DNA of 44,244 bases from positions 1 through 44,244 of IMG/VR virus record IMGVR_UViG_2896595138_000007. One strand, given 5' to 3'. The position numbers and the translations under genes are program-made. Shown here one piece after another: positions 26,303 through 30,660 of this stretch; within the stretch, counting starts at the first letter, position 1, and each line of letters starts with the position of its first letter. The stretch comes from a virus. Lineage: Duplodnaviria; Heunggongvirae; Uroviricota; Caudoviricetes. Below the pieces are notes generated by a model. The model was not told where the DNA came from and ran no database searches. It saw only the letters and a list, made by a program, of their open reading frames with translations.

Positions 26303-26330
26303 CCGCGACGCTCCCGCCCCGTGGCAGCCC
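26303..26330. other. cos-like site (cosN region)
   Basis: Minus strand reads GGGGCGGGAGCGTCGCGG...TTTTTGAAATTT, resembling the lambda cos end GGGCGGCGACCTCGCGGG...ATGAAAATTTT; located just upstream of terS. Confidence 0.4.
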
Positions 26331-26750
26331 CCCCACCGGGAGGACCCGTCAGCCAGACAGATCTGACGAACGTCTGATACAGAGCCTTGCATGAATGACA
26401 TCGGGATAATCAAAAAAGGCATAGCATCGTGCCCACAAGAATCTGTGTGAGTGTCCTGTTTCTTCCACCCCCGCACAGGACTGGCGAACATGAGGGACAA
26501 ACCCGCGAATCATTAGCGCGGTAAAAACCCGGTGTGCATCGTTTTTGATTATTCCCGCACACTCGCACAGAAGGAGTTCCCCGTCGGGCTACGGTCATGG
26601 TTAATGCGGGAATACAGCGACGATACAGCGCATGATGTGTCAGGCTTGAATACCTTTATCCGTTAAAAGGGATATCAGTTAAGTTATCCTGCGTAGGGTA
26701 TAAGCCATTGTCAAAGACACTCGACATGGAATGGGCTTTGTAATAGCAAT

Positions 26751-27050: not shown

Positions 27051-27076
27051 TTCTTCATCCTTTAGTGAGAACGCTC

Positions 27077-27111
27077 AACATACAACATACAACATACTAC
27101 ATACTACATAA
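27077..27111. repeat. Tandem heptamer repeat (AACATAC)x3 (TACATAC)x2
   Basis: Five consecutive 7-bp units read directly from the sequence, between the Rz stop and the start of the 79-aa ORF. Confidence 0.85.
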
Positions 27112-27595
27112 TGCACTGGGTGACGATATAGTTCTGCAGATAACTAATCTGTTTAGTCACTGTGACGATTCGCTCTCTAAGGGTGAAATAATCCCGTTCA
27201 GCGGAGTCATTAAGTCGGGGGCTGGTAACATCGCCCAAGCTGCCGGTGCTGGTCGCTCCATTCGCGGGACATCTGGCGTTGAAGTGCAGCCCACACTTGC
27301 CAGTGCGAACACAACGCTGCAAATCATCAAGCTGCTTTTTAGCATCAGCTAAGTCCTTCGTGTATTTGGCATCCAGAGCCGCTACATCACGCTGGCGGAT
27401 CTGCATGTCTTTGATGGTGGCGTTCGCCAGTTTCAGTTCTCTGGTGTTTTTGTCGCGCTGCTCTTTGTAAGTCATGGCGTTATCACGGTAATGATTAGCA
27501 GCCCATGACAGGCAGACGATGATGCAGATAACCAGAGCGGAGATAATCGCGGTTAATCTGCTCATTTCTGCCCCACAAACAGACTTCATGCTCAA
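27104..27595 (-). CDS. Rz: i-spanin Rz
   Basis: [30 protein letters not shown] is an N-terminal transmembrane anchor followed by a coiled-coil region; downstream of the endolysin. Confidence 0.85.
27157..27345 (-). CDS. Rz1: o-spanin Rz1 lipoprotein, embedded in Rz in another frame
   Basis: 62 aa, lipobox-like ...LASVGC, proline-rich, fully inside Rz. Confidence 0.7.
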
Positions 27596-27916
27596 TCTCC
27601 CGACGAGTCATCAGTCCTTTCCATTGCTTACCGCCAGCGTATGTCCAGCGACGTAGCTGATCACACGCACCTTTGATATCGTCCCGGTTGATTTTGCGAA
27701 GAAGCGTCGATGTTCTGAAATTTCCAGCACCCACGTTGTAAACGAACGAGTAAAGAGCGCCGCGCGTTGTTTCCGGTATATCGACTTTGATGTACGGGTT
27801 AATTTGTCTGGCGACCGTGGCAAGGTCTTTATTCAGGAGGGCTTTGCATTCTGCTTCAGTATACGTTTTACCTAGCATGATGTCTTTTCCGGTGTGTCCG
27901 TAACATACAGTCCATA
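27495..27916 (-). pseudogene. Endolysin (lysozyme, RrrD-like), 3' fragment separated from its 5' part by an IS3-family element
   Basis: ...[34 protein letters not shown]...; the 48-aa N-terminus lies on the other side of the IS. Confidence 0.85.
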
Positions 27917-27962
27917 CACTGAGGTATACTGGCAATAGCGGACACTACCATTTGTTCTTTTT

Positions 27963-28781
27963 TTAAGCAGCCATCTGATGATATTTTTCCCTGAAGGCTG
28001 CCGGGGAGATATTCCCCAGACGAGAGTGACGACGCTGACGATTGTAGAAAATCTCAATGTATTCCCGTATTACTGAGATGGCTTCATCCCGGTTATTAAA
28101 ACGATAGTGGCTCAGGCTCTCATTTTTCAGCGTTCCCCAGAAGCTTTCCATCGGAGCGTTGTCGTAACAGTTACCTTTACGCGACATTGATGTTTTCAGA
28201 CCAAACTGCTCCTGTATGACCCGGTAATCGTATGCGCAGTACTGTGAACCTCGATCAGAGTGGTGGATTAGCCCGGCAGGTGGGCGCTGGCTCCTGAGCG
28301 CCATAAACAGGGCTTTACCTGTCAGCTCTTTTGTCATGCGCTCTCCCATGGCGTAGCCGACAATTTCGCACGTATAAACATCTTTGATGCCAGCGAGGTA
28401 CAACCATCCCTCCTGTGTGGCAACATACGTCAGGTCCGCCACCCAGACCTGATTTGGTGCTGTAGGAGCGAACGTCTGGTTCAGCAGATTTGGCGCAACT
28501 GGCAGATTGTGGTTCGGGTTCGTAGTCGCTCTGAACTTGCGTTTCTGCTTACAGCGTAGCCTTAGCTCCTTACGAAGACGTGCCAGTCGGTCACGACCAA
28601 CGATGATGCCATTCTCTGCCAGCTCCGTCTGGAGCCGCCGGGTTCCATATGTTTCGCGAGTGCGGATATGTGCCACCTTAATCTCCAGTTTTAGCCGCTC
28701 ATCACTTTGTTTTCTGTCTGAGGGTTCATGCTGTACCCGGTTGTAATAACCGCTCCTGGATACACCAAATACCTGACACAT
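27963..28781 (-). CDS. IS3-family transposase OrfB (DDE integrase domain)
   Basis: 272 aa with HSDRGSQY and GNCYDNAPMESFW motifs. Confidence 0.9.
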   Translation of the reverse strand: MCQVFGVSRSGYYNRVQHEPSDRKQSDERLKLEIKVAHIRTRETYGTRRLQTELAENGIIVGRDRLARLRKELRLRCKQKRKFRATTNPNHNLPVAPNLLNQTFAPTAPNQVWVADLTYVATQEGWLYLAGIKDVYTCEIVGYAMGERMTKELTGKALFMALRSQRPPAGLIHHSDRGSQYCAYDYRVIQEQFGLKTSMSRKGNCYDNAPMESFWGTLKNESLSHYRFNNRDEAISVIREYIEIFYNRQRRHSRLGNISPAAFREKYHQMAA

Positions 28782-28816
28782 CGCTTCAATGGGAAATTGT
28801 TGTCGCCATTGTTCGA

Positions 28817-29119
28817 TTAACGCGTATTTTTCAGCGACTCCTGTGCAAAATACGCTGTTGCTTTTTTTAATATATCTCGCTCAAGGCGAGCTTCATTTAA
28901 CGCCTTACGCAGTTGCAGAATTTCAGATTCCAGTTCAGCCACCGTGCGGGAACCAGGAGTACCGAGCCCTTTTCTGGCGGCGGTAACCCATTGTCCTAAA
29001 GTGCCTTCAGGAAGGGATAATCGGGAAGCGCCTTCACTGATCGAAAGTTGATTTTCAGGAACCGTTCTGACAGCTTCGGCTTTGAACTCTTTAGAGTAAC
29101 GTTGGGTTTTTCTGCTCAT
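28817..29119 (-). CDS. IS3-family transposase OrfA (HTH)
   Basis: 100 aa, MSRKTQRYSKEFKAEAVR...; an A7 slippery run at 28848-28854 is the expected site for -1 frameshifting into OrfB. Confidence 0.9.
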   Translation of the reverse strand: MSRKTQRYSKEFKAEAVRTVPENQLSISEGASRLSLPEGTLGQWVTAARKGLGTPGSRTVAELESEILQLRKALNEARLERDILKKATAYFAQESLKNTR

Positions 29120-29176
29120 TATTAGCTCCTTCTGATGCCATTCTATTTCAGGAAGGAGTGTCCGTTAAACTCAGGC

Positions 29177-29321
29177 TACCTCACACCAACAATATCTTTG
29201 TATGGTATGTGGCTGACACCTTCCAGACCATCGTCACCACTTGGGCCAGTGATTAACACAGATGCTATAGCAATTGCCCCACCACCAATAGCAGCAGCAA
29301 CAGCCTTGCGTAATGATGGCG
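29177..29321 (-). pseudogene. Endolysin 5' fragment (signal-anchor N-terminus)
   Basis: ATG at 29321 gives [48 protein letters not shown], then runs into the IS terminus. Confidence 0.8.
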
Positions 29322-29324
29322 ACA

Positions 29325-29603
29325 TTATTCACCTCTCGCAGCCTTACGCTTATCTTCTTTAATCTTGAAATAAAGGTTTGTCAGATACGTCAGCAAGCCA
29401 AATACCAGACTACCCAGCACACCTATTGCCGCCCACTGTGAGGGCGTGACTTTATCGAGCAACTGTAAAAACCAGTACCCGGCACTACCTGCTGAGGTGC
29501 CATAGGCGACACTCGTTGTTAACTTATCCATGGATTTCATAACCCCACCTCGCAGATGCGGGTGCTGTGTAATGGAAATAAAAAGGCCACCTGACGTGGC
29601 CAC
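29325..29603 (-). CDS. Holin (class II, S21/EssD-like)
   Basis: [31 protein letters not shown]...[13 protein letters not shown]; likely true start at 29540. Confidence 0.8.
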
Positions 29604-29607
29604 CAGA

Positions 29608-30660
29608 TTATTTCCCCACCAGCTCGTTTATCTCTTTCACTGTCTGGTTAAACCGCTCTGACTCAAGCTCAACACCTAAGGCCCGACGCCCCAGCGCCAT
29701 TGCTGCTTTTATTGTGGAACCGGATCCCATAAAAAAATCAGCAACCAGATCACCAGGTCGACTACTGGCATTGATTATTTGCCGGAGCATATCCGCAGGT
29801 TTCTCACACGGATGTTTACCCGGGTAGAACTGAACGGGTTTATGCATCCAGACATCGGTATAAGGCACGGAGACTGATACGGAGAAATAGCGCCGGAGAG
29901 ATTTAAACTCATCCAGCAATTCAGAATATTTGCGATTCAGTGAATCATAAGATGCCACCAGCTGGTGGTGTGGTTGTTCCAGTTGTTGTTCCTGAAACTT
30001 CTCTGCCGCTATACGGGAAAACAGTGCCTGTAACTTCCGATAGTCAGCCTCATTCGGCAACTGCCACTGACTGGCACCAAACCAGTGGGAAACCATATTT
30101 TTCTTACCTGTGGCTTCGGCAATTTGTTTTGCCGTTATACCCAGTTCGGCACGAGCATCCCTGAAATACGATATCAGCGGTGCCATTATGTGCTGTTTGA
30201 GTTCCCTTTCTTTTGCCGCATAGCCGTCACTTTTGCCGCGATATGGCCCCTGGTAATGTTCAGCAAACAGAACGCGCTCTGTGGCAGGAAAATATGCGCG
30301 CAGACTTTCTTTATTACACCCATTCCAACGTCCGGACGGCTTCGCCCAGATGATATGGTTAAGCACGTTGAAACGTTCACGCATCATGATCTCAATATCA
30401 GATGCCAGGCGATGTCCACAGAACAGGTAAAGGCTTCCGGAAGGTTTCAACACCCGCCAGAACTGGGCCAGACAGTGGTCCAGCCACTTAATGTAATCTT
30501 CGTCCCCTTTCCACTGATTGTCCCAACCGTTGAGTTTCACCTTGAAGTACGGCGGATCGGTAACAATCAGGTCAATGGAATCATCAGGCAGGGACTGAAT
30601 AAAATGCAGGCAATCAGCGTTGATTAAATCAACACTGTTTATTTTTACAGTATTTTTCAT
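29608..30660 (-). CDS. DNA methyltransferase (N6-adenine/N4-cytosine class; orphan)
   Basis: DPPY motif (LIVTDPPYF) near the N-terminus and FFMGSGST near the C-terminus; no adjacent restriction endonuclease gene. Confidence 0.85.

Follow-up and report, generated by a model that had tools for sequence, protein, structure and literature searches.

IS600 belongs to the IS3 family of insertion sequences, was first described in Shigella and is common in Shigella, EIEC and STEC O121. Elements of this family transpose by a copy-out-paste-in pathway with an OrfAB transposase that is produced through a −1 frameshift, and some members of the family enter hairpin loops. In Shigella-like and STEC lineages, the disruption of prophage genes by insertion sequences is routine. 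The closest described lysis system is that of phage 21, whose pinholin forms small holes that only depolarise the membrane and is no substitute for an endolysin. The catalytic motif of the lysozymes that serve as endolysins in such systems is E-X8-D-X5-T (PMC9239132). Disruption of a gene by IS600 followed by loss of the element has been described for lacZ of STEC O121:H19, from which IS600 is excised via the IS-excision enhancer, IEE (PMC9397093).

We analysed a window of 44,244 nucleotides, positions 1–44,244 of the virus record IMGVR_UViG_2896595138_000007, and arrived at a probability of about 93% that a full-length IS600 has been inserted into the SAR endolysin gene of a lambdoid prophage, with loss of lysis as the presumed consequence. 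The original prediction had recognised an IS3-family element at this locus, and the comparison with RefSeq bears this out. The element occupies 27920–29183 (1264 bp) and, in the direction of its transposase, lies on the minus strand, as do the lysis genes; it is 99.8% identical across 1264/1264 bp to copies listed in RefSeq under the name 'IS3-like element IS600'. On the strength of this match the element is IS600 of the IS3 family, a name that rests on the RefSeq annotation of near-identical copies and not on the ISfinder reference. IS600 of the RefSeq type occurs in 3,487 of 5,426 complete Escherichia coli genomes, and the copy in one comparison locus (L001) differs from the copy in the window at only 6 nt. 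The traits of the IS3 family are all found here, namely a length of 1.2–1.55 kb, repeats of the form TG...CA, a 3-bp duplication, a layout of two ORFs, and DDE and helix-turn-helix domains.

The left end of the element is at 27920, where a reading of the sequence together with a script check gave TGAGGTATACTGG. From this position the element opens with TGAGGTATACTGGCAATAGCGGACAC... and it closes with ...GTGTCCGTTAAACTCAGGCTACCTCA at 29183. The original prediction had the start right but placed the end at 29173 and the length at 1254 bp, both of which fall short by 10 bp. Read as its reverse complement, the right end is TGAGGTAGCCTGAG...GGACAC, which is an imperfect inverted copy of the left end. 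The transposase-proximal repeat, IRL (29155–29183), reads TGAGGTAGCCTGAGTTTAACGGACACTCC on the minus strand, and the distal repeat, IRR (27920–27948), reads TGAGGTATACTGGCAATAGCGGACACTAC; 21 of the first 29 positions are identical, including all of the terminal 7/7, and the termini are of the TG...CA type (TGAGGTA...TACCTCA). The inverted repeats beginning with TGAGGTA that had been proposed are thus present, in imperfect form, and so is the proposed 3-bp target-site duplication. The trinucleotide CAC stands at 29184–29186 (GTG on the coding strand) and again at 27917–27919; the odds of such a duplication by chance are 1 in 64. For comparison, we collected IS600 copies from other genomes through an exact 26-mer of the IRL end, which gave 68 loci, mostly from Shigella flexneri and E. 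coli. Among the 32 full copies in this collection, 27 measure 1264 bp and 14 have kept a 3-bp duplication, with no consensus among the duplications.

The coding content of the element is that of a complete IS600. The gene orfA (28817–29119, minus strand) encodes 100 aa with a helix-turn-helix domain (PF01527, HTH_Tnp_1, E 2.2e-19), and orfB (27963–28781, minus strand; 272 aa from its ATG) encodes the DDE/integrase core, matched over its full length by PF00665 (rve, E 3.1e-26) and accompanied by HTH_21 (PF13276). A slippery heptamer, A AAA AAA, for the −1 programmed frameshift from OrfA to OrfB is located at 28862–28868 on the same strand. A −1 slip at this A7 run yields a predicted OrfAB fusion of 385 aa, equal in length to the RefSeq 'programmed frameshift' CDS, and this fusion scores 409.6 bits against the IS3 family transposase model NF033516, for which the cut-off is 160. 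Compared with WP_085948186.1, it carries three substitutions (P21/L, R128/W and P202/S), and we found no other difference from known IS600, with which the element shares its 1264 bp, imperfect TG...CA repeats, 3-bp duplication, orfA/orfB pair and A7 site at 99.5–99.8% nucleotide identity. This copy therefore appears, from its ends and reading frames, to be full-length and transposition-competent. There is no second copy of IS600 within the 44-kb window. A composite transposon was considered and rejected, there being neither a second IS600 nor any other repeat of at least 16 bp in the window.

The interrupted gene can be restored by computation. When the element and one CAC are removed, the flanks rejoin in frame as ...YKDIVGVWTVC..., as the original prediction had read them; among junction offsets of 0–6 bp, the frame is open at 0, 3 and 6 only. 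The protein encoded by the rejoined gene is a phage lysozyme (PF00959, E 1e-45) whose residues 1–164 match the phage-21-type lysozyme structures 3HDE and 3HDF and the RrrD structure 4ZPU at E of about 1e-104 or better. A Gly/Ala-rich, weakly hydrophobic SAR segment spans residues of about 8–27, and residues 4–30 are identical to those of 3HDE_A and 4ZPU_A, in agreement with the lysozyme endolysin with an N-terminal signal-anchor that had been suggested. Against the 569 bp of the restored gene region, more than 3,800 E. coli records carry an uninterrupted rrrD that aligns end to end and without a gap at the junction, the best match to this empty site being E. coli ETEC1730 at 99.8% identity. 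Because the empty site in intact rrrD is free of gaps, the event is a simple insertion, and we regard this as the decisive evidence.

By homology, then, the lambdoid prophage has been hit in a SAR endolysin gene of the phage 21 type (R / rrrD). The restored protein shares with phage 21 R and E. coli RrrD an alignment over residues 1–164 with few substitutions, the Gly/Ala-rich N-terminal segment and the motif E35-X8-D44-X5-T50. Unlike these genes, the gene in the window is split after nucleotide 142, and its last codons are frameshifted as sequenced. The frameshift results from a missing C in the run at 27571–27574, which has four C in the window and five in every intact relative examined, the listed matches being 570 bp long against a query of 569 bp. 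The absence of this C shifts the final two endolysin codons and lengthens the reading by 22 codons. As sequenced, the restored endolysin has 187 aa and stops at 27495, the left limit that had been given for the finding; that limit has to be abandoned, since it is the stop of the frameshifted reading, and intact relatives stop at the equivalent of 27562–27564. With the C added, the gene has 498 bp and a TGA at 27562–27564, and its product of 165 aa is identical at 165/165 positions to E. coli RrrD WP_089615614.1.

Counted along the gene, the insertion point comes after nucleotide 142 and between codons 47 and 48, both of which are spanned by the duplication. The 5′ fragment (29184–29325, minus strand) comprises nucleotides 1–142, that is, codons 1–47 plus 1 nt, and its residues 1–47 are identical to WP_089615614.1. 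Its reading enters IS600 by 8 nt and terminates as ...GVR* at 29176, giving a peptide of 49 aa. The 3′ fragment (27562–27919, minus strand) runs from W49 to the stop used by intact relatives, which overlaps the ATG of Rz, and lacks a separate start signal. The catalytic motif of the restored protein (residues 35–50) consists of E35, D44 and T50, and the break sits inside it. E35 and D44 remain with the Gly/Ala-rich SAR segment on the 5′ fragment, and T50 lies with the remaining 115 residues and the rest of the fold on the 3′ fragment. The original prediction, in which the anchor was separated from the catalytic domain, came near to this but was inexact, as the break leaves two catalytic residues on the anchor side. 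Going by what is known of the family, the event would have begun with a −1 slip on the A7 run that supplied the OrfAB transposase. Strand transfer into cuts staggered by 3 bp would then have produced the CAC/CAC duplication and cut the endolysin into the 49-aa peptide with anchor, E35 and D44 and a 3′ part lacking a start.

With both the catalytic triad and the fold divided between two fragments, the interrupted cassette should yield no active muramidase, and we infer, reasonably in our opinion, that lysis from this cassette is abolished in cis. An endolysin gene elsewhere in the genome, for instance in another prophage, could complement or mask the defect. The gene order of the cassette (pinholin, endolysin, Rz/Rz1) is the same as in phage 21 with its S21 pinholin. 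The class II holin of the phage 21 type (pinholin, S21 family; 71 aa; 29325–29540, minus strand; PF04971, E 1.7e-34) is intact, and its stop overlaps the start of the endolysin gene. An endolysin of the SAR type would be released from the membrane on depolarisation by such a pinholin. Because the pinholin is intact but only depolarises, induction would depolarise and kill the cell without lysis, unless endolysin comes from another prophage.

Downstream of the insertion, the inner-membrane spanin Rz is intact (153 aa; 27104–27565, minus strand; PF03245, E 1.6e-39) and equal in length to the 'lysis protein' gene of the comparison locus L004. It contains, in another frame, the outer-membrane lipoprotein spanin Rz1 (27157–27345, minus strand; PF06085, E 1.5e-13). 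Because no terminator-like site was found on the minus strand inside IS600, Rz and Rz1 are probably still transcribed by read-through, and they would be useless in the absence of wall degradation. Further upstream of the holin lies a DNA methyltransferase gene (29608–30660).

Both junctions were read from one finished assembly with systematic homopolymer errors, which raises the question of whether IS600 was wrongly placed in the endolysin gene during the resolution of repeats. Compared with two intact relatives, the window has at least 14 one-base deletions, nearly all of them in C/G runs and all in the same direction, and they break the tail, capsid, terminase and small-terminase genes, so the polishing of the assembly was imperfect. 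Because this bias towards C/G runs and the single direction are typical of homopolymer miscounting, these deletions, including that at 27571–27574, are probably sequencing or assembly errors, and for the same reason we rejected the reading that they are multiple real frameshifts and a sign of prophage decay. The exact junction of IS600 and endolysin is, moreover, absent from the 5,426 complete E. coli genomes, the GTDB species representatives and the JGI metagenome contigs, and in a large gene-position collection the 49-aa junction peptide occurs on one contig, which is CP026845.1 itself. However, a miscounted homopolymer is an error of another kind than a structural misjoin, and a misjoin would not give a perfect 3-bp duplication, two IS termini without a single base missing and a flank that joins up in frame; comparable real insertions of IS600 are also found in other genomes. 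We therefore give an assembly artefact next to no chance. Given a genuine insertion, its site might be a hot spot for IS600 or under selection, such that the lysis genes of resident prophages are recurrently knocked out by this element. The target is bracketed by a 7-bp inverted repeat, and E. coli 88_1577 and 95_0274 have a second IS600 insertion at a distance of 9 bp from this site, in an rrrD that is 95% identical. Because of this distance, its duplication ATC instead of CAC and the divergence of the gene, it is an independent event; in 88_1577 the same element thus sits in the same gene family and again inside the catalytic motif, at D44/I45. Further STEC lysis cassettes, in other strains, carry IS600 at places different from that in the window: upstream of the holin, at a later point of the lysozyme gene, which is truncated and has a deletion, or within Rz. 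These cases hint at recurrence. Yet the probability that two events fall within 9 bp of a 498-bp gene by chance is about 0.04, and the search for neighbouring insertions favours collinear matches on the same strand. Likewise, the co-orientation of IS600 with the lysis genes in 5/5 cases comes from a biased sample, as the search joins same-strand pieces only. A bracketing inverted repeat was present at 0/12 other IS600 sites with a kept duplication, compared with approximately 25% of random positions, on which ground palindrome targeting was rejected as a general rule, and the lack of a consensus among the duplications at other sites also speaks against a preferred target. Because these genomes are rich in prophages and contain thousands of IS600 copies, some matches in lysis genes are to be expected. 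A hot spot or selection at this site is consequently unlikely in our view.

A reversible switch is the other way in which the insertion could be more than simple damage. The copy in the window is complete at both ends, its transposase is intact and its duplication is clean. If it were simply excised, the endolysin gene would be whole again, such that lysis could be turned off and on again in a host that carries the IS-excision enhancer (iee). The insertion in lacZ of O121:H19 is a parallel in that the same element inactivated a gene by simple insertion, but reversibility there depends on iee (PMC9397093), and nothing resembling iee is present in the 44-kb window. Precise IS excision without IEE is rare (PMC9397093). 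Furthermore, because IEE has been described for IS3-family members (PMC9397093) and an IS4 element interrupts tail gene J of the same prophage, excision of IS600 would be insufficient for a viable phage; lysis alone would be restored. We hold such a switch to be most improbable. An extended version, in which excision of IS600 lifts a block on lysis in a subpopulation of an iee host, or in which the stretch of 20 bp that encodes the catalytic motif is a preferred target, hit independently in at least two lineages, would likewise be very unlikely; its support consists of the lacZ analogy in O121:H19 and the one independent insertion nearby. A simple insertion of IS600 with consequent loss of lysis thus stays the preferred reading. 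IS600, the endolysin family and the kind of event are all already known, and the event is an ordinary one; no paper in the literature collection that we searched mentions both IS600 and endolysin genes.

The IS4 element is located at 6855–8279, where it splits the tail-tip gene J, and is flanked by a 13-bp duplication, CTCCAGTCTGCTG. Because both the endolysin gene and gene J have been hit, at least two late functions are damaged by IS elements alone, and the prophage, which is lambdoid, decaying and riddled with IS elements, is marked as lysis-defective and tail-defective. This fits the well-documented decay of prophages through IS elements in Shigella-like and STEC genomes. From the load of IS600 and IS4, one might guess at Shigella or EIEC as the host. 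The importance of the finding hardly extends beyond annotation: the endolysin is best entered as a single pseudogene with IS600 inside it, and anyone counting pseudogenes in the record should first discount its many apparent frameshifts as probable homopolymer errors. What the re-analysis has gained is a corrected set of coordinates, the exact placement of the insertion within the catalytic motif, a caution about homopolymers and the IS4 in gene J as a second insertion sequence. The window derives from NCBI CP026845.1, to which it is byte-identical over 20,150 bp, a chromosome of 4.93 Mb (assembly GCA_002950375.1). The 24-kb half that was queried (20000–44244) is covered to about 82%, at 97–98% identity, by prophages that lie beside yjjG in several E. 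coli strains.

IS600 also interrupts rrrD, a SAR endolysin gene of the same family as the split endolysin gene in the window, in E. coli 88_1577 (NZ_CP074804.1), where the element occupies positions 3594-4857 of the retrieved locus (L001). The rrrD gene in this locus is 95% identical to that of the window, the insertion lies 9 bp from the window's IS600 site, and the target duplication is ATC, located at D44/I45. The insertion in 88_1577 is independent of that in the window. Strain 95_0274 showed the same IS600/rrrD arrangement as 88_1577.

In the window, the IS600 target is flanked by a 7-bp inverted repeat, CCATACA-N13-TGTATGG, the arms of which (27912-27918 and 29200-29206) become neighbours once the element is removed. 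The arms in 88_1577 read CCATACG/CGTATGG, that is, both are changed relative to the window and the changes are complementary. Because a comparable bracketing inverted repeat was present at none of 12 other IS600 sites, the repeat around the window's target is probably a coincidence.

IS600 was further found in other lysis cassettes, namely upstream of the holin in O121:H19 strain 16-9255, in 2013C-3492 at a point 348 nt into a lysozyme gene that is truncated, and within Rz in EH2252. The common orientation of the element in these three loci is an artefact of hit joining. Directly downstream of the window's Rz, five copies of a CAACATA tandem repeat (27076-27110) were observed, two units more than in the relative ETEC1730. 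Exact IS600 ends also occurred on tiny contigs in two unrelated Gram-positive assemblies, one of 547 bp assigned to Streptococcus sanguinis and one of 1380 bp, with a coverage of 1.3, assigned to Streptomyces sp.; there they look like contaminating DNA from E. coli or Shigella.

The tail-tip attachment gene J of the window is interrupted as well, by a 1425-bp IS4 (6855-8279; 6842-8292 including the duplications) with inverted repeats TAATGCCAGTCAGTTAAG... at one end and ...CTTAACTGATCGGCATTA at the other, a transposase ORF at 6868-8094 (-), and a 13-bp target duplication, CTCCAGTCTGCTG, at 6842-6854 and 8280-8292.

Compared with intact E. coli relatives, single bases are missing from C/G homopolymers at 11577, 12282, 15701, 17076, 17408, 20217, 25087, 25524, 26021, 26328-26331, 27571, 33004 and 41908, and a few further one-base deletions affect T runs. 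The broken genes encode tail proteins, a capsid-protease fusion, the large and small terminase, and the endolysin at its 3′ end. Because all of these changes run in one direction, we consider them probable assembly errors in CP026845.1, not real pseudogenes.

At the edge of the window lies an ORF with a TIR domain (1-423, +). Other ORFs comprise a Lom/Ail outer-membrane protein gene (5316-5915, -) and, between the tail-fibre and tail-fibre-assembly genes, two neighbouring ORFs with macro-domain matches (1461-2365, -), which may be a single gene split by an indel.
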